The notes beneath the pieces were generated by a model that was not told the origin of the DNA, did not search any database, and worked only from the letters and a program-made list of their open reading frames with translations. A stretch of DNA of 64,000 bases from an archaeon (lineage in GTDB: Archaea; Iainarchaeota; Iainarchaeia; Iainarchaeales; GCA-2688035), in the NCBI GenBank assembly GCA_041645325.1, contig JBAZQI010000001.1, positions 8,945-72,944 on the forward strand, given 5' to 3'. Shown in pieces: positions 3,457-53,769 of this stretch. Numbering within the stretch: position 1 is the first letter of the stretch; every line of letters starts with the position of its first letter. A program made the position numbers and the translations under genes.

Positions 3457-3496
3457 GAACAGGGCTATTCGGTCACTCTTTTTGCAAAAAAGGCTT

Positions 3497-3572
3497 TTTT
3501 TTGCCTTAAAATAGCTTTAAATACAAGAAAACCCTAATTCTATTAAAAATTTCGAGGGAGGTGAAAAGCAAA
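3497..3572 (+). promoter_or_regulatory. conserved promoter/5' leader block (TATA-like TTTAAATACA + GGAGGTGA SD), duplicated at 4308-4375
   Basis: About 85% identity over roughly 70 nt between 3497-3575 and 4308-4378. Both end at the ATG of a membrane-protein gene. Confidence 0.55.
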
Positions 3573-4265: not shown

Positions 4266-4307
4266 ATATTTGGTTTAAAGCGAAGAACACCCTTTTTCTT
4301 TTTTTTT

Positions 4308-4375
4308 CACTAAAATAGCTTTTAAATACAGGAAAACCCTTTTATATCTAAAATTTCAGGGGAGGTGAAAAGCAA
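4308..4375 (+). promoter_or_regulatory. second copy of conserved promoter/leader block
   Basis: cactaaaatagcttttaaatacaggaaaaccc...ggggaggtgaaaagcaa matches the 3497-3572 block. Confidence 0.55.
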
Positions 4376-4702
4376 ATGGCAATTAAATCAATTACAAGGA
4401 TTGACCCTGTGCAGTACGGGAAAGTGCTGGCAGTGCTATTGGCAATTATATACCTGATTATGGGGCTAGTAATGACCCTGTTTATGGGATTGATTGGCGG
4501 AATCATGGCAATGATTCCAGAGGCTGGTGGCGGATCATTTGCCGGTTTCGGTGTCGGTCTCGGCATAGGCGGCGGCTTGGCAATGACCGTTGCCATGGTT
4601 ATTTTCGGAGCAATCTTTGGCTTCGTAATGGGCGTAATCGGCGCTTTCATCTATAATTTTGTCGCAAGCAAGGTAGGCGGAATAAAAATTGACCTTGAGT
4701 GA
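4376..4702 (+). CDS. small glycine-rich membrane protein
   Basis: 108 aa with two TM segments and a GxGxG-rich loop. Has a strong SD and the duplicated leader; followed by a T12 tract (terminator-like). Confidence 0.45.
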   Translation: MAIKSITRIDPVQYGKVLAVLLAIIYLIMGLVMTLFMGLIGGIMAMIPEAGGGSFAGFGVGLGIGGGLAMTVAMVIFGAIFGFVMGVIGAFIYNFVASKVGGIKIDLE

Positions 4703-4740: not shown

Positions 4741-4856
4741 AGCCTTTTGCCGTGGGCAAAAGCCTTGGGAAAAAGCTTCGCAAAAAAACAGGCAAAGCCA
4801 CCGCACCTGCGAAGCAAACCAATTAAATACATTCCAGCTCAAAATTCATTATTCGT

Positions 4857-5071
4857 GCCGGCGTGGCTGAGCTCGGTTGAAGGTGCTCCGCTCGAAAAGG
4901 CCTTTTTTCCTGCTGGAAAAAAGCCTTGGGAAAACCCAAATTGCTGATGCAATTTGAGGCCTTTTCTTAGAAAGAAAAGCCCTGGGAAAAGAAAGCAATG
5001 CTGATGCATTGCTAAACGCGAGGAACGGAGTAGGTCGAAAGGCCTCACAGGTTCAAATCCTGTCGCCGGCG
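4857..5071 (+). tRNA. tRNA-Ser(CGA), class II, with a ~128-nt intron at 37/38 (4897-5024)
   Basis: Acceptor GCCGGCG/CGCCGGC. D-arm GCT-GAGCTCGGTTGAA-GGT. Anticodon stem CTCCG(4886-90)/CGGAG(5026-30), loop CTCGAA|intron|A. Variable arm GGTC-GAAA-GGCC. T-arm ACAGG-TTCAAAT-CCTGT. Discriminator G. No encoded CCA. Confidence 0.6.
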
Positions 5072-5072
5072 A

Positions 5073-6509
5073 TTAGAGTTTTCTTACAGTTCCCTTGTTT
5101 GCATCAACTTCAATTAGGTCGCCTGTTTTGATTGCTTTTGTTGCAAGCCTTGTTCCGACAATGCAGGGGATGCCGAATTCTCTGGCAAGAATCGAAGCGT
5201 GGGATGTGAGACCGCCTTCGTCTGTAACAATTGCAGCGGCCTTGCTTGCGATTAAAACCATTGTTGGCTGTGTCATTGTCGTAACCATTACTTCGCCTTT
5301 TTTGAATTCCCTTAAATCCTTTTCAAGCGTTGGCAAATCCCTCACCAAAATAACCCTTGCTTTGCCTTTTGCTTTGCCAGGGCATGCAATTGTTCCGCTT
5401 ATTTCCGTCACAGAGATTTCTTTTTTGAAGCCAACTTCTTTTTCCGCAACCAACAATGCTTCTTCGCCTGAAAAAAAGCGCAGTTGCAGGTTGTCCAGCC
5501 AAAAAAGGTAAAATTTTTTTCTATTGGCGATTTCTTCTTTGCTTAATTTAATTTCACGCTCCAAGAAATTCAAAACGTCCTCAATGTTATAAGTCCACAT
5601 AAAATCATCAATCGTTTCTCCAACCCTTGCCGCAATTTCCCTGAACATGTTTTGGAACAAGAATTCAGCACCGCCCCAAACTGCTTTTGTTTCCATCCTG
5701 TCAATTGCGGACTTTTGGAAAATAAGGGCAAGTTCCGACGCTTGTTCGCTCCCTTGCAGGCCGGCCAAAATTTCCTTCTGCTTGTTTGCAAGCTCAATGC
5801 TTTTCCGCCGTATTTCATTTGTTTTCAGCAAGACCTCTGCTTCGCTTATTTTCCCCAATGGCAGGGCTTTTTCTTTTAGGAAACTTACAGCCGTGCTCTC
5901 ACTATATGTGTTAAAGAAAAGCCAGGGGTGTTTTTTTGCGTGCTCTAAAAGCGGTGTTTCATCGCCTGGCAAAGCAGCCTTTAGAAAATCTATTTCCTCC
6001 CTTTTAATAGCATCCACTTCACAAGGGGTCGTTAAAATAGTGAAATATGAGCTAATCTGCTCTTCTGAAAATGAATTCTGGTTCAGCAGCTTCTTCAATG
6101 CTTTTTCCGCCGGCTTGAGGAACTCCGGCTGTGATGCGGAAAAACAGGGCAGCAGCCTTTCATACGCGGTTACATAATGGTTGAACAGCTTGGCAAGCCC
6201 TTCGTTGCCCAGCTCCCTTAAATCCATTTTCTCCTTTTCGCTATACAATTCAAAAAAATTTTTTCGCGCGGCATTTGACTGTTCTAAAACCTTCCTGAAG
6301 AATGACTCCGCCAAAAGCTTTTTGCCTTCTTTCACGGTTTGCAGGTTATCATATTTTTTTACGTAATTGTGCAGCTGCCTGTTTTCAACCAGGGAAAAAC
6401 TGTTTTTTCTTACCGCCCCAAAAAAATGTCTCTGGGTGGCGTAATACCTGGTCCAGCACTCAGCAGAAATTGCGCTATGGCTCTCACCCCAGTCAAAAAT
6501 CCATTCCAA
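5073..6509 (-). CDS. PEP-utilizing-enzyme mobile-domain protein (PEP synthase/PPDK-like C-terminus, novel N-terminal region)
   Basis: C-terminal ...GGLTSHASILAREFGIPCIVGT... is a phosphohistidine swivel domain. The N-terminal roughly 380 aa was not recognised. Confidence 0.65.
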   Translation of the reverse strand: MEWIFDWGESHSAISAECWTRYYATQRHFFGAVRKNSFSLVENRQLHNYVKKYDNLQTVKEGKKLLAESFFRKVLEQSNAARKNFFELYSEKEKMDLRELGNEGLAKLFNHYVTAYERLLPCFSASQPEFLKPAEKALKKLLNQNSFSEEQISSYFTILTTPCEVDAIKREEIDFLKAALPGDETPLLEHAKKHPWLFFNTYSESTAVSFLKEKALPLGKISEAEVLLKTNEIRRKSIELANKQKEILAGLQGSEQASELALIFQKSAIDRMETKAVWGGAEFLFQNMFREIAARVGETIDDFMWTYNIEDVLNFLEREIKLSKEEIANRKKFYLFWLDNLQLRFFSGEEALLVAEKEVGFKKEISVTEISGTIACPGKAKGKARVILVRDLPTLEKDLREFKKGEVMVTTMTQPTMVLIASKAAAIVTDEGGLTSHASILAREFGIPCIVGTRLATKAIKTGDLIEVDANKGTVRKL

Positions 6510-10690: not shown

Positions 10691-13600
10691 ATGGCGCTTG
10701 AGGAAGATGCTGATGATGAATCTGATTTTTCCCCTGATTTTTCTGCAAAAGCGGGGAAGGCTGGTGCGAAGCAAATTTCCCCTGATGAGGGAAGCGAAAG
10801 CCCCTATGTTTCCAAGTTTCTTGAATTTTTTGAGGCCAATTACAAGAAGGAATTGGAGCGGCTTGTTGAAAACTATCCTGACAAGAGAAGCCTTGAGGTT
10901 GACTTCAGGCTGCTTGAGCAGTTTGACATAGAGCTTGCGGACGCGATTTTGGACTCTCCTGACCTGCTGCTTGAAGCCGCAAAGGACGCGATTGAGCAGA
11001 TTGAGGTTCCTGCGCTTGAAATTGAAATCTTTTCTCCGCATGTGCGCTTTTTCAACATCCCGAAAGAGCATGAGCCTTTGGTGAGGGACATAAGCGCTGC
11101 ACAGCTTGGAAAGTTTATTGCGGTTGAAGGTGTTGTAAGGCAGATTACCACTGTGCTGCCAAAGCTCAAGGTTGCGGTGTGGAAATGCAGGCACTGCGGC
11201 AACACTTACGAGAAAGTGCAGGATGACCAGCAGCTCAAAATGCCTTCTTTCTGCGAATGCAGGCACAGGGACTTTGACCTTGTGCCGGAGCAATCCGAGT
11301 TCATTGACAGCCAGCGTGTTGAAATACAGGAGCCCTTGGAAAGGCTGAAGGGAAACGAGCAGGCCTCTACATTGCAGGTATACATTGCCGACGACCTTGT
11401 CAACAGGATAAGTGCAGGGGACAAGACAAGATTTACAGGGGTACTGAGGCTTGCGGTGCCGGACAAGAAGAAAACAGTTTACGGCAGGTACCTTGAGGCC
11501 TTTCATTTGGAGGAAACCCAGCGCGAATTCCTTGACGTTGAGATATCGCCTGAAGAGGAAAAGGAAATAAAGGATTTGGCGTCAAGCCCTGACATTTATG
11601 AAACGCTTATAAAAAGCATTGCGCCCGCAATTTACGGCCACGAAAAGGTCAAGGAATCAATCATCCTGCAGTTGTTCGGCGGCGTCAAGAAGAACCTGCC
11701 CGGCAACCAGACTGTGAGGGGAAACATCCACGTTTTGTTGGTGGGTGACCCTGGTTGCCTTGTTGCTGATGAAAGGATTGTGCTTGGCAATGGTGCAATT
11801 GAAAAAATCGGCAGCATTGGTTCAAGGCACTTGGAGGAAATAAACCTGCAGGTGCTCACAGGGCAGGGTGGCGCGAAAAGGGATACAGCAACTGTTTTCC
11901 ATTATTACAAGAGCCAGCCTGTGATTGAAATAGTTACAGAGAGTGGAAAAAGCATCAAGGGAACGCCAAACCACCCTCTTCTGTGCATTTCAAAAGAAAA
12001 CAGCCGTGTTGCAAGAAATTGGAAGCGCCTTGACGAATTCAGAGAAGGGGACAAGGTTGCGGTAGTGACTGGAATTCCCTGCACGATTACCCGTTACATT
12101 GAGACTGGCTTTAACCAATTGCCGCCTATTGGCGGGAGCAAATTCAAGGGTTCCTTACCTGAAAAGGTTACACCGGAGCTGGCTTCTTTTTTGGGTTATA
12201 TGGTTGGAGACGGCTGGGTTAGAAACTATGAAACGGCCTTTGTTGTGGCGGATAATGAAAAAGAGCTGTTGGAGCCGCTTCTCAAAATGTGTGAAAACCT
12301 GTTTGCGATAAAATCCTCTGTTGTAAGAAGAAAGCTTGAGGGAAGAAAAGTCTGGCTGAATTATGCAAGCATTTATTCGAAAAGCATTTCGCAAAACTTG
12401 CTCTTTTTGAGGGAAAAGCGTGTTCCAAACCCCATACTTAAGTCAGGCAACAAGGTTGTGGCATCCTTTTTGAAATGGCTTTTTACCGCAGACGGTTGCG
12501 TTTTCAACAATGGGCGGGGGAGGAGAGCTGTTTCATTTAAGGCAAAAAATATTGAACTGCTAAGGGACCTGCAAGTGCTTCTCCTCAGGTTTGGCATTCA
12601 CGGCAGAATAACTGGGAATTCACTTCAAATAAGGCGGGGCAGGGACATCATAAAGTTTGCGAAAAAAATCGGGTTTGCTTCAAAAAAGAAACGGGCTACA
12701 CTAAAAAAACTCGCGGAAGAAGCAAAGTCTTTTGCAGGGTTTAATTCCCAACGAAGCGAAAAAATAGTAAAAATTATTCAGCATGAGCCGGAAGATGTTT
12801 TTGATATTGAAGTTCCTGGCAGTCATCGTTTCATAGCAAACGGTGTCATCTCGCACAACACAGGCAAATCTCAGCTTCTTCAGGCCGCAAACACCATTGC
12901 GCCCAAAAGCATTTACACCGCGGGAAAAACCACGAGCGGCGTTGGATTGTGCATTGCGCCTGATTCTTTGGTGCTGAATGGCAATGGCTTTAAGAGGATT
13001 GAAGACTTTGTTGAAGAAAATTTCTGCAATGAAAAAGCGTTTGAGGAAATTCCCGGCGCATGGTCAAATATTTTTGATGGAAAGAGCCTTTCTTTGGACA
13101 ATGGGCTAAAAGCCGAAGAGGGAAAAATTTCCAAGATTTGGAGGCTAAAAGCCCCTGAAAAAATGTTTAGGGTGAAGACAAGGCTCGGAAAGGAGCTTGA
13201 GCTCACGCCGCATACTTCTCTTGTTAGACTAAAAGAGGGCAATGTTGGCTGGGTTGAGGCGCAGGAAATAAGCGAAGGCGATTTCATTGCCTGCGCAAGA
13301 AAACTGCCTGAAGGCGGCAGAAAAAACATTCCTGCAATCGGCATAATTGCGCATGACAAAAACGTGCGGATAAAGGACAATGTTGCAGTGCAATTGAAGG
13401 AAATAACCGACGGGCTTATGGCAAAGTACGGTTCTTTGCAGGAAATAGCCAAAAGCATTGGCAAAAGCAGGAATACGCTTTATTCAATCAGGAACAAAAA
13501 ATTCTATCACGGCATTTCTTTGAAGAATTTTGTTGAACTTGGCAAAGAGGCAGGATTTTCATTGGAAGCGCTTTCAGGGTGTGTTTCCACGATTTTCATA

Positions 13601-15577
13601 AGCTATGGAAAGGAAATGAAAATTCCGCGATATTTGGATAACGAGCGGCTTGCTTATTTGGCCGGCTTGGCTTTGGGTGACGGCAGCCTGTATGAGGCCG
13701 ATAGAAGTGCGTCTTTGAGGATTTTCAGCGCTTCACCGCAGCTTTTGCAGGAAGTTGACAACATTGCCCTGGATTTGTTTGGCTTGGAAGCTGAGAAGAT
13801 TGATGATGGAGTCAGGGTTCCTGCCAGGAGAATAAAATTCAGGGCTGTTTGTGAGCTTTTGAAGGCATTTGGCCTGGATAAAAGGAAAGGCAAAATAAGA
13901 ATTTCGCATCTTGCCTCGGAAATGCCTAACAATATTCTTTCAAAGCTCTTGCAGGGCTTGTTTGACACCGACGGCTGGGTTTGCAGTGGCAAAGACAGTC
14001 ACTGCATTGGCATGACAACGATTAGCAGGGATTTGGCGCAAAGCGTGCAGCTTTCTTTGCTAAAATTCGGCATCAGAAGCAAATTAAGGGAAAGAAAGAA
14101 AGCCGGCGTGCTTGCCGTTGGCAGAAAAATCTCTGTCACAAGCAGGCACAATCAGTATTGCATTGAAATAATGGGCAAAGAAAGCGTTGGGCTGTTCAAA
14201 GAGCACATCGGATTCAACCTTGCGCGAAAAAAAGAGAAATTGCAGGAACTTGCAACAAGCGTTCCAAAAGGCAACACAAACATTGATGTTGTTCCGCAAA
14301 TTCAAAGCCTGCTGAAAGCGGAGAAAGCAGAGTGGATTTACAGCAGTGGCAGGTCAAACATTTCAAAGGAAAAGCTGCAAAGGCTTGCAGGCGAGCAAGC
14401 ACTTGGCAATTCATTGTTGAAGCAATTGGCGGAATCTGATGTGATGTGGGAGCAAGTTGCGGAAAAGGTTTGCATAGAGTCGGCATACCCTTTTGTTTAT
14501 GATTTCTCGGTTGAAAAAAACCATAATTTTGTTGCAAACGGAATTTTTGTGCACAACACTGCATCTGCAGTCAAGGACGATTTTGGCGAGGGCGGCTGGA
14601 CATTGAAGGCTGGTGCGCTTGTTTTGGCCAGCGGCGGGGTTTGCATGGTGGATGAGCTTGACAAGATGGAGGCAGAGGACAGGAGCGCAATGCACGAGGC
14701 AATGGAACAGGGCATGATTTCAATAGCAAAGGCTGGCATTGTCACAAGGTTCAAGTCCGACACAAGCATCTTGGCCGCGGCAAACCCAAAGATGTCAAGG
14801 TTTGAGCCCTACCAGCCTTTCATTGAGCAGATTAATTTGCCGGCTTCGTTGATTTCAAGGTTTGACCTTTTCTTCATGATAAAGGACGTTTTGGACAAGA
14901 CAAAGGACGAGGCAATCACGGCGCACATCCTCAAAACGCACAAGGGCGGGGAAATGATTTCACAGTACAAGCAAAAGGGCAGGGTCATGCTGAAACAAGA
15001 CCAGGATGACATTGACCTTATTTCCTCGCCGCCGATACTGCCGGAATTGCTGGGAAAATACATTTCCTATGCAAGGCAAAACGTTTTCCCGATAATGAGC
15101 AAGGAGGCAATACAGCTCATTGGTGATTTTTACATCGGGCTGAGGGACATTGGGCGAAAAGAGGGAAGCTATGCGGCAACCCACAGGCAGCTTGAGGGCC
15201 TTGTAAGGCTTTCAGAGGCAAGCGCAAGGGTGCGCTTAAGCGACATTGCGGAAAAAGAGGACGCTGAAAGGGCAATAAGGCTTGTGAAGGCTTCTTTGAG
15301 CGATGTTGTCACAGACCCTGAAACAGGCAAGATTGATTATGACATCATTATGACCGGGCAGACTCACACCCAAGTTACGAACATGCGCAAAATCCTCACC
15401 ATCCTGAGGGAAAAGGCGAAAGAGCAGGACAATGTGCCGTTGCAGGATGTGCTCAACGAAGCTTCTGTGCAGGGAATTGACGCGGAAAGGGCGCGTGACC
15501 TCATAGCAAAGCTCGAAAAAAACGGCGAGCTCTACAGGCCAAGGCACAATTTCCTCAAGCCGACGAGAAACGAGTAA
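10691..15577 (+). CDS. mcm: MCM replicative helicase precursor carrying two inteins (mature about 724 aa)
   Basis: N-terminal OB/zinc (CRHCGN..CECRH). Walker A GDPG|intein|TGKSQLL. Walker B/arginine-finger region GALVLASGGVCMVDELDKM after the second intein. C-terminal wHTH. Confidence 0.9.
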   Translation: MALEEDADDESDFSPDFSAKAGKAGAKQISPDEGSESPYVSKFLEFFEANYKKELERLVENYPDKRSLEVDFRLLEQFDIELADAILDSPDLLLEAAKDAIEQIEVPALEIEIFSPHVRFFNIPKEHEPLVRDISAAQLGKFIAVEGVVRQITTVLPKLKVAVWKCRHCGNTYEKVQDDQQLKMPSFCECRHRDFDLVPEQSEFIDSQRVEIQEPLERLKGNEQASTLQVYIADDLVNRISAGDKTRFTGVLRLAVPDKKKTVYGRYLEAFHLEETQREFLDVEISPEEEKEIKDLASSPDIYETLIKSIAPAIYGHEKVKESIILQLFGGVKKNLPGNQTVRGNIHVLLVGDPGCLVADERIVLGNGAIEKIGSIGSRHLEEINLQVLTGQGGAKRDTATVFHYYKSQPVIEIVTESGKSIKGTPNHPLLCISKENSRVARNWKRLDEFREGDKVAVVTGIPCTITRYIETGFNQLPPIGGSKFKGSLPEKVTPELASFLGYMVGDGWVRNYETAFVVADNEKELLEPLLKMCENLFAIKSSVVRRKLEGRKVWLNYASIYSKSISQNLLFLREKRVPNPILKSGNKVVASFLKWLFTADGCVFNNGRGRRAVSFKAKNIELLRDLQVLLLRFGIHGRITGNSLQIRRGRDIIKFAKKIGFASKKKRATLKKLAEEAKSFAGFNSQRSEKIVKIIQHEPEDVFDIEVPGSHRFIANGVISHNTGKSQLLQAANTIAPKSIYTAGKTTSGVGLCIAPDSLVLNGNGFKRIEDFVEENFCNEKAFEEIPGAWSNIFDGKSLSLDNGLKAEEGKISKIWRLKAPEKMFRVKTRLGKELELTPHTSLVRLKEGNVGWVEAQEISEGDFIACARKLPEGGRKNIPAIGIIAHDKNVRIKDNVAVQLKEITDGLMAKYGSLQEIAKSIGKSRNTLYSIRNKKFYHGISLKNFVELGKEAGFSLEALSGCVSTIFISYGKEMKIPRYLDNERLAYLAGLALGDGSLYEADRSASLRIFSASPQLLQEVDNIALDLFGLEAEKIDDGVRVPARRIKFRAVCELLKAFGLDKRKGKIRISHLASEMPNNILSKLLQGLFDTDGWVCSGKDSHCIGMTTISRDLAQSVQLSLLKFGIRSKLRERKKAGVLAVGRKISVTSRHNQYCIEIMGKESVGLFKEHIGFNLARKKEKLQELATSVPKGNTNIDVVPQIQSLLKAEKAEWIYSSGRSNISKEKLQRLAGEQALGNSLLKQLAESDVMWEQVAEKVCIESAYPFVYDFSVEKNHNFVANGIFVHNTASAVKDDFGEGGWTLKAGALVLASGGVCMVDELDKMEAEDRSAMHEAMEQGMISIAKAGIVTRFKSDTSILAAANPKMSRFEPYQPFIEQINLPASLISRFDLFFMIKDVLDKTKDEAITAHILKTHKGGEMISQYKQKGRVMLKQDQDDIDLISSPPILPELLGKYISYARQNVFPIMSKEAIQLIGDFYIGLRDIGRKEGSYAATHRQLEGLVRLSEASARVRLSDIAEKEDAERAIRLVKASLSDVVTDPETGKIDYDIIMTGQTHTQVTNMRKILTILREKAKEQDNVPLQDVLNEASVQGIDAERARDLIAKLEKNGELYRPRHNFLKPTRNE
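11756..12859 (+). mobile_element. intein 1 (368 aa) inserted in the MCM P-loop, with LAGLIDADG homing-endonuclease domain
   Basis: Begins with Cys directly after GDPG and ends ...VISHN followed by T. Internal motifs LGYMVGDGWV and LKWLFTADGCV. Confidence 0.85.
12950..14557 (+). mobile_element. intein 2 (536 aa) in MCM AAA+ core, with LAGLIDADG domain
   Basis: Begins CIAPDSLVL... and ends ...GIFVHN followed by T. Motifs LAGLALGDGSL and LQGLFDTDGWV. Confidence 0.85.
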
Positions 15578-17336: not shown

Positions 17337-17575
17337 TAAGCCTTTCTTTCTAAAGAAAGAAAGCCTTGGGAAAGAAAGAAGCCTTTTTTGCTTGGGCAAA
17401 AAAGCCTTGGGAAAGAAAGAAGCCTTTTTTGCTTGGGCAAAAAAGCCTTGGGAAAAGAAATTTTCCCTTTTTTTTTCGCCAGCCCCAAGCAAAGCATGGC
17501 TTTGCGGGCCTCGTACCCTGCAGGGCACTCGGTTTTTCCAAAAGGCTGTTGGGAAAAACGCCTTCGGCAAAAGGG
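17337..17575. repeat. array of AAGCCTTGGGAAAG / GCTTGGGCAAAA modules plus palindromes upstream of aIF2-beta
   Basis: (aaagccttgggaaagaaagaagccttttttgcttgggcaaaa) occurs twice plus a partial copy. Palindromes ctttctttctaaagaaagaaag, gcaaagcatggctttgc and ccctgcaggg are also present. Confidence 0.65.
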
Positions 17576-32789: not shown

Positions 32790-32965
32790 TTTGCGAAGCA
32801 TTTTTCCCAAGGCTTCCGAGTACCCTGCGGGGTACGAGGCAAGAAAAGCTGTTGCTTTTCTATGTTTTGCTGTTGCAAAAAAGGCTTTGCGCGAAGCGCA
32901 TTTTTCCCAAGGCTTTTTTGCTGTTGCAAAAAAGGCTTTTTGATGAAACTTTTTTTCAAAAGTTT
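32790..32965. repeat. inverted-orientation copies of TTTTCCCAAGGCTT repeat with hairpins
   Basis: gcatttttcccaaggcttccgagtaccctgcggggtacgagg ... gcgcgaagcgcatttttcccaaggcttttttgctgttgcaaaaaaggc. Confidence 0.6.
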
Positions 32966-36353: not shown

Positions 36354-36434
36354 AGCCGCCACAGCCGGCTGGTCTGAGTGCCATCTTCGCGCCTTTGTGG
36401 CGCTCGATGCCACAGGCTCGTTGTTGCTCGCCAA
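36354..36434 (+). repeat. family-2 repeat copy A (AGCCGCCACAGCCGGCTGGT ... GGCTCGTTGTTGCTCGCCAA)
   Basis: Conserved 5' and 3' ends shared with copies at 39356, 39755 and 53277. The central hairpin is gcgcc-tttgt-ggcgc. Confidence 0.6.
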
Positions 36435-36454
36435 TTAGCCGTTACGCTTGAAAG

Positions 36455-36576
36455 CCGGGCTTTGCGCCATCAGGCGCATTTTTCCCAAGGCTTTTTCTGA
36501 ACCGGTAAGGTTCAGAAACCGTAAGAGATGCCAAAGCATCTCTAAGGTTTTCCGCAGAAAAAAGGCTTTGCGCCCT
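36455..36576 (-). repeat. full-length copy of AAGCCTTGGGAAAA element (reverse orientation)
   Basis: Reverse complement aligns module by module with 30826-30942, including the agagatgc/gcatctct and tctgaacc/ggttcaga hairpins. Confidence 0.75.
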
Positions 36577-39355: not shown

Positions 39356-39439
39356 AGCCGACACGTCCGGCTGGTACGAGCAAGGGCCCTATTTCGCTCC
39401 CTTTTGGTCGCTCAATAGGGCGGCTTCGCTGGCAAGTCC
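39356..39439 (+). repeat. family-2 repeat copy D (diverged 3' end)
   Basis: agccgacacgtccggctggtacgag ... central hairpin ccctatt/aataggg. Lies 4 nt after the Sm stop. Confidence 0.55.
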
Positions 39440-39541: not shown

Positions 39542-39613
39542 GGGCCCTTGGTCTAGTGGTATGATGCTCGGTTGGCAATCGGGAGGTCGCGGGTTCAATT
39601 CCCGCAGGGTCCA
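39542..39613 (+). tRNA. tRNA-Ala(GGC)
   Basis: Acceptor GGGCCCT/AGGGTCC with the G3:U70 alanine identity pair. Anticodon loop TTGGCAA. T-arm GCGGG-TTCAATT-CCCGC. Discriminator A. Confidence 0.85.
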
Positions 39614-39639
39614 AAACCCATTGAGCCCAAGCGAAATGG

Positions 39640-39732
39640 GTTCTCCTGTGGCAGTTGTAATTTTCCAAAGGCTTTTGTGCAACAGCCTTTAACAAAGGCT
39701 GGCGAAAAATGCTTCGCGAGCACAAAAGGCTT
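39640..39732. repeat. AAGGCTTTT-family hairpin modules inside the insert downstream of tRNA-Ala
   Basis: ttccaaaggcttttgtgcaacagcctttaacaaaggctggcgaaaaatgcttcgcgagcacaaaaggctttt. Confidence 0.55.
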
Positions 39733-39754
39733 TTCAATTCCCGCAGGGTCCAAA
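39733..39754 (+). repeat. 22-bp duplicate of the tRNA-Ala 3' end (ttcaattcccgcagggtccaaa)
   Basis: Identical to 39594-39615. Lies 117 bp downstream of the tRNA. Confidence 0.75.
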
Positions 39755-39823
39755 GCCGCCACTGCCGGCTGGTCAGGGTACGATTGCCTTCGGCAATCCT
39801 ACAGGCTCGCTATTGCTCGCCAT
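39755..39823 (+). repeat. family-2 repeat copy B
   Basis: gccgccactgccggctggtcagg...gattgcc-ttc-ggcaatc...ggctcgctattgctcgcca. Confidence 0.6.
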
Positions 39824-39932
39824 TGTGCAAAGTGAAATGGTTTTTTTGCCAAAAGTGCCGCAAATTGGCTTTAATGTTGTTTTTGGCAGCTGACGAAAGC
39901 TTTTTTTAGGCGGTAGGCGTATTCTATTTGAA

Positions 39933-41597
39933 ATGGTTTCCAAAAAGGAGCTTCTTTTGAAGAGCATCCGCGAACTGCTCGCCTTGAACGTTTCCGACAA
40001 GGAAATAGCGATGAACCTCAAAGAGGTTGGCATTGACGAGGCCAATGCAAAAGCCCTTATTCTTGAGGCAAGGCAGCCAGAGGCGCCTGCGCAGGCCCAG
40101 GAGCCTGAGGCAAAGTCTGTTCCTTTCTTTGGCGGCTTTGGGCTGAAAAAAGAGGGCAAAAGCGTTTCGCCTGAAGAAGAGGCAAAAGAGGTTGTGGCTG
40201 AAAGGGAGCAGGCGACTGAAGACCTTGCTGCCGAATCCGTTGAGGGTGAAGAAGAGCCTGAAGGAGGGTCGGAAGAGATTGCGGAAGGCCTTGGCTTTTG
40301 GGACAAATCCGGGGAAAAAAAGCCGGCTAAGGGCAAGGCGGAAAAGAAAGCGCCTTTTGCCTCCGTTGAAACGCCGCCGCTTGGGATTTTTAAAAAAAAT
40401 TCCCTTGATTCGGAGGACGGGGCGGATGAAGCAGGCGAGGATGCCCCTGCAAGAAAAGAAAAGCCAAGCCTTGTCGAGGACATCCTGGTGAGCAAGCTTT
40501 GGGAGAAAGGAATTTTTGCAACCGTAAACCAGAAGCTTGCTGAAATGGAAGACCTCAGAAGGGACCTTGATGCTGTGCTTGACAAAAAGGTTGCGGATGC
40601 AAGCAAAAGGGAAATGGAAAAAATAAAGGTTTTGTTTGACAGCCAGCGCGCGCTTTTGGTGAGCAAGGTTGATTCCGAGCTTGAGGCAAAGGCAAAGGGC
40701 TTTGCGGAAATGATTGAGATGAAGCTCAGGGAAATGCGGGGCATAAACAAGCAGATTGCCTCCCAGATTGAAACAGTGAAGGAAATGGAGCGCGGCTCAA
40801 AGGTCAGTGCCGATGCCATTTCACAAAGGCTGGAGGAAGCCGACAAGCTCAAGGAACGCATTCTCTCCTCGCTGAACGGCGAGCTCATAAACACCAGGAG
40901 CGAAAGCAGGTCCCTTGTGGAGGAAATGGGCAAAAAGCTCGGTGACATGGATGAAAGGATAAACAAGACGCTGCAGCTTGAAAACCAGATTGTTGAAGGG
41001 CTTGTCAAGGAAGCCGAGCGCAGGGTTGTAGCCCTGCTTGAGGAAAAGTCCGCAGAGTTTTCAGCCGAAACCAAGAGTAGAATCGAGGATATTGGAAAAC
41101 TCAAGGATTCCTTCAAAGCGGCCCAAAAAGCCGAGTTTGCAGAGACCGAAGAGGGCATTGCCGCAAAGCTTTCCTTGTTTGAGGAAATGATTGGCAAAAA
41201 CGGCCGGGCCCAGAAGGCCGAGCTTGCAAAGGCGGAAGAGGGCATTGCCGCAAAGCTTTCCTTGTTTGAGGAAAGGGCTGACAAAAAGCTTGAGGCGCTG
41301 GACAAGCTGCAAAAGCAGATTTCCCTGGATTTCAAGCCTGAAAAATTCAGGCAGACAATGCAGGAGCTCAACGAGTTCAAGGCCCAGTTCGTTGACGCAA
41401 TAAAGCAGAACGCCGAAAGCTTCAACGAGGGAATAAAGAATCTGAACCAGCAAAGCCAGGTGATTGAAAGGCAGTTCATGTTACGTGCGGAAAAAATAGA
41501 CAAAAAGATTGCGGAACTCGATGCCTTTGAAAAAAGTTTCGCAAAAGAAATGGGCCTTGCAATAGAAAAAATCCCGAAAAAGGGCAGCGGGAAATAG
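39933..41597 (+). CDS. long coiled-coil protein with acidic N-terminal region and internal 29-aa tandem repeat
   Basis: 554 aa with predicted heptad-rich sequence. A 40-bp perfect DNA direct repeat at 41148-41187 and 41235-41274 encodes EEGIAAKLSLFEE. Confidence 0.55.
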   Translation: MVSKKELLLKSIRELLALNVSDKEIAMNLKEVGIDEANAKALILEARQPEAPAQAQEPEAKSVPFFGGFGLKKEGKSVSPEEEAKEVVAEREQATEDLAAESVEGEEEPEGGSEEIAEGLGFWDKSGEKKPAKGKAEKKAPFASVETPPLGIFKKNSLDSEDGADEAGEDAPARKEKPSLVEDILVSKLWEKGIFATVNQKLAEMEDLRRDLDAVLDKKVADASKREMEKIKVLFDSQRALLVSKVDSELEAKAKGFAEMIEMKLREMRGINKQIASQIETVKEMERGSKVSADAISQRLEEADKLKERILSSLNGELINTRSESRSLVEEMGKKLGDMDERINKTLQLENQIVEGLVKEAERRVVALLEEKSAEFSAETKSRIEDIGKLKDSFKAAQKAEFAETEEGIAAKLSLFEEMIGKNGRAQKAELAKAEEGIAAKLSLFEERADKKLEALDKLQKQISLDFKPEKFRQTMQELNEFKAQFVDAIKQNAESFNEGIKNLNQQSQVIERQFMLRAEKIDKKIAELDAFEKSFAKEMGLAIEKIPKKGSGK

Positions 41598-41608
41598 CCT
41601 GTTTTGAA

Positions 41609-41680
41609 TGGGCCCGGGGAGAATCGGACTCCCGATCTTATCCATGTCAAGGATACGTCATGCCACTAGACCACGAGCCC
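41609..41680 (-). tRNA. tRNA-Val(GAC)
   Basis: Minus strand reads GGGCTCG-TG-GTCT-AGTGGCA-TGAC-G-TATCC-TTGACAT-GGATA-AGATC-GGGAG-TCCGATT-CTCCC-CGGGCCC-A. Confidence 0.85.
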
Positions 41681-45004: not shown

Positions 45005-45658
45005 ATGAATCTGCCGACGCGCGAACAATGCCTTGCATTGCTTGAAAAATACAATATTCCCAGGCACATTGTAAGGCACTCGCTTGCGGTTGAAAGGGTT
45101 GCGGTTTTTCTTGCAAAAAAATTCAACGAAGCAGGCATTCCAGTGGATGCCGGGCTTGTGAGCAGGGGCGCGCTCTTGCATGACATTGACAAGATTGAAA
45201 CCTTGAAAGAGGGCTTTGGGCACCTGCACGGCAAAATGGGCAGGGAAATCCTTGAAAAAGAGGGCTTTCCTGAAATCGGAAAAATTGCGGAGGCGCATCA
45301 TTTGGAAAGGGTGCTTTCTCTGAAGCCTTTTTTCCCGCGGGAAAAAAGCCTTGGGAAAAGTGCGCCTGTTGGCGCAAAGCCTTTTTTGCTTGGGCAAAAA
45401 AGCCTTGGGAAAAGTGCGCCTGTTGGCGCAAAGCCTTTTGACTGCTGGGAGGAAAAGATTGTTTATTATGCCGACAAGCGCGTCAACCACGACAAAATTG
45501 TTTCCCTTGACGAGCGTTTTGATTATTTGCTCAAAAGATATGGCATTGAAAAGGGCATTCGCCGCACATTCCTGCATTGCAAACCTCTTGTGGAAAAGCT
45601 TGAAAAGGAGATTTTCTCAAAAATAGATGCAGGTCCTGAATTGGAGGGATTGTCTTGA
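45005..45658 (+). CDS. HD-domain phosphohydrolase carrying an in-frame repeat-element insertion
   Basis: H..HD..K metal motifs (RHSLAVE, LLHDIDK, YYADKRVNHD). Residues encoded by 45323-45440 (KSLGKSAPVGAKPF, twice) derive from the AAGCCTTGGGAAAA repeat. Confidence 0.7.
   Translation: MNLPTREQCLALLEKYNIPRHIVRHSLAVERVAVFLAKKFNEAGIPVDAGLVSRGALLHDIDKIETLKEGFGHLHGKMGREILEKEGFPEIGKIAEAHHLERVLSLKPFFPREKSLGKSAPVGAKPFLLGQKSLGKSAPVGAKPFDCWEEKIVYYADKRVNHDKIVSLDERFDYLLKRYGIEKGIRRTFLHCKPLVEKLEKEIFSKIDAGPELEGLS
45323..45440 (+). repeat. two tandem partial copies of AAGCCTTGGGAAAA-GTGCGCCTGTTGGCGCAAAGCCTTTT module, in-frame within the HD gene
   Basis: Direct sequence repeat with ttttcccgcgggaaaa and gcgcctgttggcgc palindromes. 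Confidence 0.75.
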
Positions 45659-52881: not shown

Positions 52882-53208
52882 TCACTCCAGCTGCTTCAGC
52901 CTTACAAAACAGTTTTCGCAGATGAATTTTTCGTTGAAGTCAATGCCGTTCATGCCGCCTGTGCCGCAAAGGATGCAGATTTTTCCGTGCTGTGGCAGTG
53001 AAAAGTTTTCCGCCCAGGCCCTCAAAAGCTCCCATGAAACCCACTTTGGCATGAACAATTCGCGAAAAACGCTTTTGTCGTTCTTTTGAATGCGCTCAAA
53101 CTGGCTTGGCATGACTTTCCTGTGGAGGCCTTTCAGGAAATTCACCTTTTCCAAATCGCCTTTTCTCATCAAATCATTTACCGTCTGTTCAAAAAATTCA
53201 TTTGCCAT
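52882..53208 (-). CDS. hypothetical protein with C-terminal zinc ribbon
   Basis: CILCGTGG...CENCF. Confidence 0.45.
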   Translation of the reverse strand: MANEFFEQTVNDLMRKGDLEKVNFLKGLHRKVMPSQFERIQKNDKSVFRELFMPKWVSWELLRAWAENFSLPQHGKICILCGTGGMNGIDFNEKFICENCFVRLKQLE

Positions 53209-53235
53209 AAAACCACTTCATTCCCATTTTATCAC

Positions 53236-53276
53236 TTCAGGTAAATAACCTTTTTTCCATTCTTAATCTTTGCCCT
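53236..53276 (+). repeat. 41-bp direct repeat DR1, a duplicate of the 3' end (last 14 codons + stop) of gene 53353..53769
   Basis: ttcaggtaaataaccttttttccattcttaatctttgccct versus 53357-53397 tttaggtaaatgactttttttccattcttaatctttgccct. Both reverse complements encode RAKIKNGKKVIYLK followed by a stop. Confidence 0.75.
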
Positions 53277-53350
53277 AGCCGTCACGTCCGGCTGGTACGG
53301 GCACAACCTCGCTTGGGCTCGGTTGAGCCGGCTCGCTGCTGCTCGCACTT
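53277..53350 (+). repeat. family-2 repeat copy C, bracketed by the 41-bp direct repeats
   Basis: agccgtcacgtccggctggtacggg...ggctcggttgagcc...ggctcgctgctgctcgca. Confidence 0.6.
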
Positions 53351-53352
53351 AA

Positions 53353-53769
53353 TCATTTTAGGTAAATGACTTTTTTTCCATTCTTAATCTTTGCCCTTTT
53401 TGCGTATTTTTCCAGGTAGTGCACCGTGCTCTTTGAAATGCCTGTAACGCGCTCCACTTCGCGCAGGCTCTGGTAGTCCTTTCTCATTTCAAGCGCCTGC
53501 TGCATTTTCTCCAAAGGCATTGAAATCGGCCTTCCCGGCCTTGCCACTGTTTCCAAAACAACGCCTTTTTGCCAGAGCAATGCAACGCTTTTCTTCGGCA
53601 TTCTTGCAATGCAGCTTTTGCTTGCGCTCGCAGTTTCAAGCATTGCGCATTTTTTCAGGATTCCTTCAAGCAATTCCTTTTTTACCGGCCTGACAAAATG
53701 CAGTTTTGCCGCTTCCTTCGGAATATCCCTGGCGTCCATTCCCGGCAAAACAGAAAAAATCATGCACAA
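53353..53769 (-). CDS. HTH DNA-binding protein (resolvase/sigma-70 region 4-like HTH at C-terminus)
   Basis: SLREVERVTGISKSTVHYLEKY helix-turn-helix. Confidence 0.5.
   Translation of the reverse strand: MCMIFSVLPGMDARDIPKEAAKLHFVRPVKKELLEGILKKCAMLETASASKSCIARMPKKSVALLWQKGVVLETVARPGRPISMPLEKMQQALEMRKDYQSLREVERVTGISKSTVHYLEKYAKRAKIKNGKKVIYLK

Follow-up and report, generated by a model that had tools for sequence, protein, structure and literature searches.

A folded repeat between two copies of a gene end in an Iainarchaeota archaeon, and the repeat family to which it belongs

Introduction

Some integrative elements, such as prophages in icd and others in tRNA genes, bring with them a substitute 3′ end for the gene that they target, and in tRNA genes the stretch from the T-loop to the 3′ end is a classical integrase sublocation. 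Among smaller inserts, repetitive extragenic palindromes with their REP-associated tyrosine transposases (REP/RAYT) and elements derived from IS200/IS605 are not known to make a target duplication, and the palindromic elements of Rickettsia and the Correia elements of Neisseria are not known to make long duplications at their junctions. We know of no retroposon of the SINE (short interspersed nuclear element) type described in archaea. The genomes of DPANN archaea are tiny and densely packed, and are generally considered poor in repeats. Here we analyse a locus in a 64,000-nt stretch of the genome of an Iainarchaeota archaeon (GenBank assembly GCA_041645325.1, contig JBAZQI010000001.1, positions 8,945 to 72,944), which we call the window. 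At this locus a folded repeat of 74 nt, copy C of a family that we name family 2, lies between two copies of the 3′ end of a helix-turn-helix (HTH)-like gene.

The direct repeats consist of the target gene's 3′ end, as attL- and attR-type repeats do. We demonstrate an insertion with matched empty sites, a duplication, a conserved element end, a covarying structure, a target bias and several alleles among strains. The reading that we favour, with moderate confidence, is that in copy C a non-autonomous structured element was inserted recently and in this lineage only, making a long target duplication, with later recombination between the repeats.

Results

The end of an HTH gene is duplicated around one family-2 copy

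The locus has the following parts, listed along the window in the direction of transcription.
53353–53763, minus strand: HTH-like gene, 136 aa, of a family conserved in archaea of the Iainarchaeota/Diapherotrites type
53353–53397, minus strand: DR2, the proximal direct repeat; the present end of the HTH open reading frame (ORF), with 4 synonymous differences from DR1
53277–53350, plus strand (AGCCG... reading): family-2 copy C, 74 nt; its minus-strand reading is sense with both flanking genes
53330–53346: 3′ domain of copy C, GGCTCGCTGCTGCTCGC
53304–53308 and 53321–53325: middle hairpin of copy C, in which CAACC pairs with GGTTG
53283–53301: 5′ hairpin domain of copy C
53232–53276, minus strand: DR1, the distal, displaced repeat; the last 14 codons and stop of the HTH gene, still adjoining the native spacer, beyond which the downstream gene starts
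52882–53208, minus strand: zinc-ribbon gene, 108 aa, with a weak Gin match; co-directional with the HTH gene and downstream of it

Read on the minus strand, DR1 and DR2 (45 nt each) both encode RAKIKNGKKVIYLK-stop. Self-BLAST aligned the pair over 46 nt at 91.3% identity, and a looser extension over 55 nt at 87%. An earlier note, made from the window's letters alone, had described a gene end of 41 nt duplicated around a single family-2 copy with the coding sequence preserved. That description is borne out, although the repeat is slightly longer (45–46 nt), and exactly one family-2 copy (53277–53350) lies between DR1 and DR2. The two 41-mers (53236–53276 and 53357–53397) differ at 3 positions and are each other's sole match in the window at up to 3 mismatches, where none is expected by chance. 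Next to the AGCCG end the target reads CCCT, at a point 45 nt within the HTH gene. The only inverted repeat found in 53270–53356 is an internal 6-nt palindrome, and terminal ones are absent.

The repeats differ at 4 of 45 coding nucleotides, always at a third codon position and synonymously (AAA/AAG, GTC/GTT, CTA/CTG and AAA/AAG). All four differences are changes on DR2. DR1 keeps the codons of the closest relative, L004 (93% protein identity; loci in other assemblies are cited by such numbers), whose gene end is 95.6% identical to DR1 and 86.7% identical to DR2. Three of the four bases that distinguish DR2 agree with a more distant lineage, L002.

Relatives have empty sites, and near-identical strains carry different alleles

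The gene order in relatives is PHP-like, HTH, 108-aa zinc-ribbon (weak Gin match), HAD hydrolase and DHH phosphoesterase, and the HTH and zinc-ribbon genes are co-directional and nearly touch. Nine relatives have no insert, and their distance from the HTH stop to the next start is 5–55 nt, against 144 nt in the window.
L188: 5 nt
L186: 9 nt
L187: 10 nt
L004 and L185: 15 nt each
L182, L183 and L184: 23 nt each
L001: 55 nt
Window: 144 nt

In the alignment these relatives lack precisely one repeat plus the element, and DR1 and the sequence beyond it are colinear with their spacer, so that the nine empty sites confirm the insertion that had been proposed.

Copy C is missing from relatives whose HTH protein is 90–93% identical, whereas a relative with 74% identity in its HTH protein has counterparts of two other window copies, B and B2, at matching positions. 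The earlier note had taken the differences between DR1 and DR2 to mean that the event is not very recent. This is doubtful, given the empty sites at 90–93% identity and the presence of filled, 57-nt-duplicated and unfilled forms among strains with identical HTH protein. All the differences are on DR2, the functional copy, and the displaced DR1 keeps the closest relative's state; simple age accounts for this less well than relaxed constraint or allelic recombination does.

The exact 136-aa HTH protein occurs on at least 7 contigs from other samples, and with the outgroups included there are four types of allele. The window allele recurs base for base across both junctions in L190, L192 and L193, making four assemblies including the window's own. 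L191 has the element of copy C between perfect 57-nt repeats, each consisting of the 45-nt gene end plus TTAAGTGCGAGC, and L189 agrees with it up to a scaffold gap. L194 has one copy of the 57-mer and no element, and is the L191 allele minus exactly a 121-nt unit. The outgroup allele has neither the element nor the 12-mer TTAAGTGCGAGC. In other copies the far end of the element usually looks much like this 12-mer (AATTGGCGAGC and TTTGCGAGC), and L194 is therefore probably left over from recombination or excision, with part of the element retained. On its gene side the window allele resembles L191, on its far side the outgroups, and from these sequences it would be either the original insertion or a recombinant. 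Whatever the order of the alleles, gain, loss and reshuffling of the element with its repeats are under way among near-identical strains. In L189 a run of N (~2060–2160) stands right after the second 57-nt repeat copy, and additional tandem repeat–element units may have defeated the assembler there.

Family 2 is a folded repeat with one precise end

The window holds four family-2 copies, all in the same orientation (starting at 36354, 39356, 39754 and 53277). We scanned a genome collection with a 17-base signature, AGCCGNCACNNCCGGCTGGT, which gave many chance matches in high-GC bacteria; the real copies were on low-GC contigs of Iainarchaeum metagenome-assembled genomes (MAGs) and of two MAGs that are probably mis-binned. 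A stricter pattern gave 62 metagenome loci. The number of distinct copies came to about 57. In the data searched, family 2 is confined to Iainarchaeota-type DPANN archaea, and viral contigs held no copy. Rfam, searched at both gathering and E-value thresholds, placed no family on any copy (the best matches by E-value scored far below gathering), and the only matches in the window to reach the gathering score were two tRNAs. Literature searches found no description of family 2, which is apparently an undescribed, lineage-restricted family of folded repeats.

Copies are roughly 64–75 nt long. The 5′ domain is invariant, AGCCG-N-CAC-XY-CCGGCTGG-T-Y′X′-G, and XY is complementary to Y′X′ in 55 of 58 copies through four combinations (GT/AC, GC/GC, TG/CA and AG/CT). 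By a formal count of pairs 96% of cells are paired, a score that none of 500 shuffles reached. As read from the aligned copies, this covariation shows selection for the predicted family-2 fold. One or more hairpins make up the middle of the element; their stem sequences vary between copies but pairing is kept, and their loops sometimes enclose other small hairpin repeats from the same genome. The 3′ domain comes in a long form (GGCTCGCTnnnGCTCGCC) and a short form (GGCTTCGC), or is missing, and 3–20 nt of A/T-rich filler come after it; a 5′ domain accompanies 16 of 19 3′ domains. The AGCCG end is always precise while the opposite end is variable, and complementarity is lacking between the two ends (AGCCG... 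and ...GCTCGC).

Just outside the AGCCG end the sequence is biased towards C-V-W-W, with C at position −4 in 42 of 58 copies (72%), a base other than T at −3, and A or T at −2 and −1. We interpret this as a target preference because the biased bases are part of the duplicated target wherever a copy is flanked by repeats. Hairpin subfamilies showed no link with the flanking target, inspection of the repeats revealed no symmetric half-sites in duplicated targets, and no distant partners of the left flank, a sign of large integrated elements, were found within each locus. The minus strand folds more stably in 33 of 45 copies, compared with 57% in controls, which is a weak sign of a functional strand. 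The octamer CCGGCTGG occurs eight times on the plus strand of the window and never on the minus strand; four of the occurrences are in genes and look like chance. Given the common orientation of the four copies, a strand or replication bias may exist.

We compared the 72 ORFs of the window and 143 ORFs beside other copies with Pfam, and refer here and below to the top 25 families per scan. Among these top families the neighbours of family-2 copies are of the housekeeping kind, and neither Y1/HUH enzymes nor TnpB were seen.

In relatives, head-to-tail or nested family-2 units are common (L134, L179, L118, L011 and L170). At three copies (L118:4713, L132:5927 and L159:3159) the TAG stop of the upstream gene on the same strand spans the junction, with its T in the flank and its AG in the element; these three have no flanking duplication.

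Resolved flanking duplications lie at gene junctions or tRNA ends

The condition that the earlier note set for its refutation, in part that no other family-2 copy has duplications beside it, does not hold: other copies too have duplicated gene ends at their flanks. About 12 of the 57 copies have significant flanking direct repeats, of which the left copy always ends at the AGCCG end. Repeat length is 13–25 nt elsewhere, clustering at 20–23 nt, but 46 nt in the window and 57 nt in L191. At the resolved protein-gene junctions the element is sense as its reverse complement, the genes are co-directional and abut or overlap, and the duplicated piece spans the junction.
L111, L155 and L139 (also L167, a partial contig): 240-aa gene ending ...LNG-stop, whose stop overlaps the next start (ATGGCTGA)
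L011: gene ending ...YWAWQK-stop, with an ATGA overlap
L055: gene ending ...LGVGTCL-stop
L048: gene ending ...IGGLRC-stop
Window: HTH/zinc-ribbon pair

Outside this resolved set, flanking repeats of related sequence are present in L033 and L131.

At these junctions the first repeat copy keeps the C-terminus and stop of the upstream gene, while the downstream gene has its ribosome-binding and start context in the second. Since each copy serves one gene, both would be under selection, and this would account for repeats being visible only at such junctions. It would also account for the drift in L139, where one copy has kept the coding sequence and the other has kept GGAGG...ATG, and for the four synonymous changes in the coding copy of the window, the other copy being unchanged. 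Allelic recombination ending at the insert would equally give the pattern of DR1 and DR2.

A possible ORF bridges the insert.
53232–53348, minus strand: 38 codons, beginning with GTG 4 nt past the HTH stop, in frame through the element and ending on the stop of DR1

Analogous bridging ORFs are present in L055, L111, L155 and L167, and roughly in L139. They start at or beside the upstream stop, run through the element in the frame ...CAG CCG GNC GTG ACG GCT, and end on the stop left over in the second repeat, as far from the downstream start as in the native arrangement. At three orthologous sites the repeat-to-repeat distance varies (91, 100 and 85 nt) but the reading phase is kept. The bridging frame is open in 7 of 9 repeat-flanked copies and in 14 of 36 others, a post-hoc comparison with a rough p of about 0.003. 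The pattern suggests that a translated bridging ORF would preserve the translational coupling of the split gene pair.

Other copies in the window and the link with tRNA genes

The other family-2 sequences of the window, with the tRNA-Ala gene near two of them, are as follows.
36354–36433, plus strand: copy A, between divergent genes; no flanking repeat
36437–36460: degenerate partial family-2 5′ domain, AGCCGTTACGCTTGAAAGCCGG, directly after copy A
39356–39430, plus strand: copy B, with a short 3′ domain, a few nt past the TAA stop of a plus-strand ORF that we take to be Lsm-like
39542–39613: tRNA-Ala gene
39616–39754, plus strand: separate insertion beside tRNA-Ala, in which ~117 nt from other hairpin repeats are followed by a 22-nt copy of the tRNA 3′ end
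39754–39823, plus strand: copy B2, the ancestral neighbour of tRNA-Ala

In relative L179 the tRNA-Ala(GGC) gene is followed by one T and then a family-2 copy, and the stop of the upstream ORF is followed by a diverged copy. These shared positions indicate that B2 and B are old residents. Beside the window's tRNA-Ala 22 nt, reaching from the T-loop to the tRNA's 3′ end, are perfectly duplicated (39594–39615 and 39733–39754) and enclose an insert at 39616–39732. The earlier note had seen the HTH locus mirrored here, but family 2 lies outside this pair of repeats, and what was inserted is the other 117-nt block with the 22-nt tRNA copy. The insert holds a module like the family-2 middle hairpin (CCCATTTCGCTTGGGCTCAATGGG, minus strand) and is absent from L179. 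The other parallel that had been drawn was with a TA cassette, and no such cassette was found among the window candidates. The candidate at 2.7–4.7 kb consists of membrane-protein paralogues, that at 27.5–28.2 kb is an internal repeat in an S-adenosylhomocysteine (SAH) hydrolase gene, that at 30.3–31.2 kb consists of adenylate-kinase/TRM5-type genes, and that at 50.2–50.8 kb is Pcc1/prefoldin.

Across the family, eight copies start 0–2 nt beyond the 3′ end of a same-strand tRNA gene that is complete. Several of these tRNAs have long introns and are missed by default scans. A further 2 copies abut a tRNA 5′ end on the other strand. In L144 and L168 the last 20–22 nt of the tRNA are duplicated, and L168 has a tandem repeat–element–repeat–element–repeat array at tRNA-Cys.

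Host genes and other features of the window

The HTH ORF was called at 53353–53769, but we place the conserved start at the ATG at 53763 because nearly all of its 57 homologues are 136 aa long. The few named homologues come from Candidatus Diapherotrites or Iainarchaeum. Some homologues have a precomputed DUF1699_N match, and a Pfam search with the window's HTH protein itself gave no match. The gene content of the window is of the housekeeping kind: Topo VI, MCM with inteins, ribosomal proteins and tRNA synthetases.

A dense set of ~41–54-nt hairpin repeats (AAGCCTTTTTTGC..GCAAAAAAGCCTTGGGAAA) is intergenic and often tandem, and units of it are found inside family-2 loops of relatives (L151, L178, L169 and L141).
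2579–2606, 4745–4772, 4898–4994, 17338–17460, 32865–32948 and 45323–45440: ~41–54-nt hairpin repeats

Positions 4856–5073 (plus strand) hold an intron-containing tRNA gene, missed by default ARAGORN and by Rfam, for which ARAGORN with introns allowed gives an intron of 128 nt; by our reading it is a predicted tRNA-Ser(CGA). Two copies of the commonest small hairpin repeat in the window (AGGCCTTTT-hairpin-AAAAGCCTTGGGAAAA) make up its intron, and the pattern recurs in relatives (for instance L141, a tRNA-Ser with a 102-nt intron; L122; L127).

A 1628-aa ORF at 10691–15577 (plus strand) is suggested to be an intein-containing MCM gene, the Pfam summary of window ORFs listing MCM, intein-splicing and two LAGLIDADG matches without attribution to particular ORFs. 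Within the minus-strand ORF at 39773–41650 an 81-nt unit is repeated in tandem at 41120–41287 (87-nt period, 88% identity). Similar upstream blocks (TTTAAATAC box ... GGAGGTGAAAAGCAAATG) precede three consecutive membrane-protein genes (3494–3572 and 4298–4376; also 2757–2789); judged by these blocks, the genes look like tandem paralogous cassettes with copied promoter and leader regions.

Discussion

Comparison with described small elements

Family 2 resembles MITEs (miniature transposable elements with inverted repeats) in being short, non-coding and non-autonomous, with dispersed intergenic copies, target duplication and filled/empty polymorphism. It differs in having no terminal inverted repeats, only one invariant end, and no related transposase found near its copies, and in a duplication that is 13–57 nt long, rather than the 2–10 nt of MITEs, and is absent in 45 of 57 copies. 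We rejected the MITE reading because the element ends are not complementary. With REP elements, the bacterial interspersed mosaic elements (BIMEs) that accompany RAYT, and IS200/IS605-derived elements, family 2 shares a hairpin-based form without terminal inverted repeats and a modular, mosaic make-up; one of its ends abuts a short preferred target motif, and the window copies are all on one strand. Unlike these, copy C and 11 others have long duplications, although most copies have none; the target motif is weak (only C at −4 reaches 72%), and no Y1/HUH enzyme was seen among the top Pfam families. The Rickettsia palindromic and Neisseria Correia elements are likewise small folded repeats tolerated in operons and reading frames, with frames open through the element, but their sequence is unrelated.

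Other candidates were set aside on specific grounds. An integron attC site was rejected because the ends (R″/R′ core sites) are not complementary and the neighbours are housekeeping genes. A diversity-generating retroelement was rejected because the differences between the repeats are all synonymous, one being C/T, and no reverse transcriptase was among the top window Pfam families. An intron cut by the splicing endonuclease was dropped since the direct repeats cannot form the required helix, and read-through of the stop codon since the in-frame continuation past the HTH stop soon hits a TAG.

How copy C may have arisen

We picture the events as follows. The element would have landed between two tightly coupled, co-directional genes, its AGCCG end joined right after a C-V-W-W target. 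The stretch from the join to just beyond the HTH stop would then have ended up on both sides of the element, so that DR2 would now complete the HTH protein and DR1 would be the original sequence with the native upstream context of the downstream gene. Movement would be the work of an enzyme acting in trans. A long staggered break, filled in after joining, could have produced the duplication, ~20–25 nt in most copies and 46–57 nt here, and duplications would stay visible only at abutting or overlapping gene junctions, where both copies are selected. Later unequal recombination between the repeats may have added and removed units, and the four synonymous changes in DR2 could stem from relaxed dual constraint or from allelic recombination ending at the insert.

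Several observations sit badly with a young insertion of this kind. To our knowledge, a target duplication of 20–57 nt exceeds that of every known transposon class. No flanking repeat is present at 45 of the 57 copies, which requires the extra assumption that those copies are old, nor at any of the eight copies directly after a tRNA. Among the top 25 families of each Pfam scan of window and neighbouring ORFs there was no transposase, integrase or reverse transcriptase. Finding four changes in the constrained copy and none in the free copy has p ~0.004 under simple duplication and drift, by a rough estimate. Finally, the single-copy allele L194 retains 12 nt (TTAAGTGCGAGC) that resemble the element's own end.

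Alternative explanations

Site-specific integration of the tyrosine-recombinase type seems to us unlikely. On this account a tiny element, mobilised in trans, uses its own gene 3′ end as attachment core, and the proximal repeat is imported while the distal one is native, as with prophages in the 3′ ends of genes and tRNAs. The parallel with such integrative elements is close: the gene 3′ end is present twice with its frame preserved and only synonymous differences, and the tRNA-linked repeats (the window's tRNA-Ala, L144 and L168) start at the T-loop and stop at the tRNA 3′ end. Only synonymous differences separate DR2 from DR1, and DR2 shares three of its four distinguishing bases with L002, while DR1 matches the nearest relative; tandem arrays at one site and the occupation of the same sites in several diverged genomes point the same way. 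On the other hand, the insert is 121 bp, with no enzyme ORF, and a double-stranded circle of that size is physically implausible. No integrase was seen among the top families of the Pfam scans, viral contigs lack copies, and the family uses many sites. A T-loop start is also expected from any duplication of ~22 nt that ends at a tRNA 3′ end, and the L191 repeats are perfect over 57 nt. Furthermore, L111, L155 and L167 have different family-2 variants at one site between repeats that match each genome's own gene, as the repeats usually do, and such host-matched repeats around varied elements fit local duplication better than a travelling core.

Equally improbable in our view is copying through RNA in the manner of SINEs, by which nicked targets would receive reverse transcripts of a small RNA released from the 3′ trailers of tRNAs. 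This predicts one precise end, one ragged end and target duplications of variable length. Family 2, which like SINEs is small, structured and linked to tRNA, has the precise AGCCG end, a varied other end (long, short or no 3′ domain, then the A/T-rich filler), repeats of 13–57 nt, a weak, nick-like target motif and a strong, conserved fold. The eight copies 0–2 nt after a complete same-strand tRNA stand where RNase Z would create the AGCCG 5′ end. Yet family 2 lacks a tail rich in A or U, it has no known partner reverse transcriptase, none having appeared near the copies among the top families of the Pfam scans, and the RNA intermediate is hypothetical. Polar truncation is not obvious when 16 of 19 3′ domains have their 5′ domain, and the clustering of repeat lengths at 20–23 nt points to a fixed stagger rather than a random second nick.

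Less probable still is that family 2 is an immobile, resident functional RNA or DNA signal, for example an element for transcript ends or processing, and that the 121-nt structure arose by tandem duplication and recombination. The old copies keep their positions beside tRNA-Ala and the upstream ORF stop in L179, covariation implies selection on the fold, and unequal crossing-over can interconvert the alleles. But nine relatives without family 2 at the locus imply that the element came from elsewhere, copies are dispersed in many unrelated contexts, sometimes nested or in tandem and with other repeats in their loops, and no Rfam family matches. A metagenome assembly artefact joining two strain variants, suggested by the resemblance of the two repeats to two alleles of one gene end, is scarcely credible when the same junctions occur in at least 3 other assemblies (L190, L192 and L193) and equal architecture at about 11 other loci in unrelated assemblies.

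Beyond a young insertion with a long target duplication, one may speculate, with little confidence, that family 2 is a new kind of archaeal mobile element, derived from tRNA-trailer RNA and spread through an RNA intermediate or by a ruler-type integrase that makes duplications of ~20–57 nt, and that operons tolerate it since the junction duplication, together with the frame open through the element, yields a short bridging ORF that restores stop–start coupling in the split pair.

Meaning for the lineage

The class of event is familiar, and the features of family 2 make it a variant. Family 2 falls outside the usual classes of element, having no inverted ends, no enzyme gene among the top Pfam families nearby, one precise end, long duplications and a link with tRNA ends. 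It is nonetheless dense in this DPANN lineage, with 4 copies per 64 kb, and is still being gained and lost among near-identical strains. The locus shows how a compact operon survives an insertion, the duplicated junction serving both the end of the upstream gene and the start context of the downstream one. The discovery of an enzyme that moves it, or of an RNA intermediate, could bring to light a new mechanism of insertion in archaea, and spread through RNA, if true, would make family 2 the first SINE-like retroposon in Archaea.

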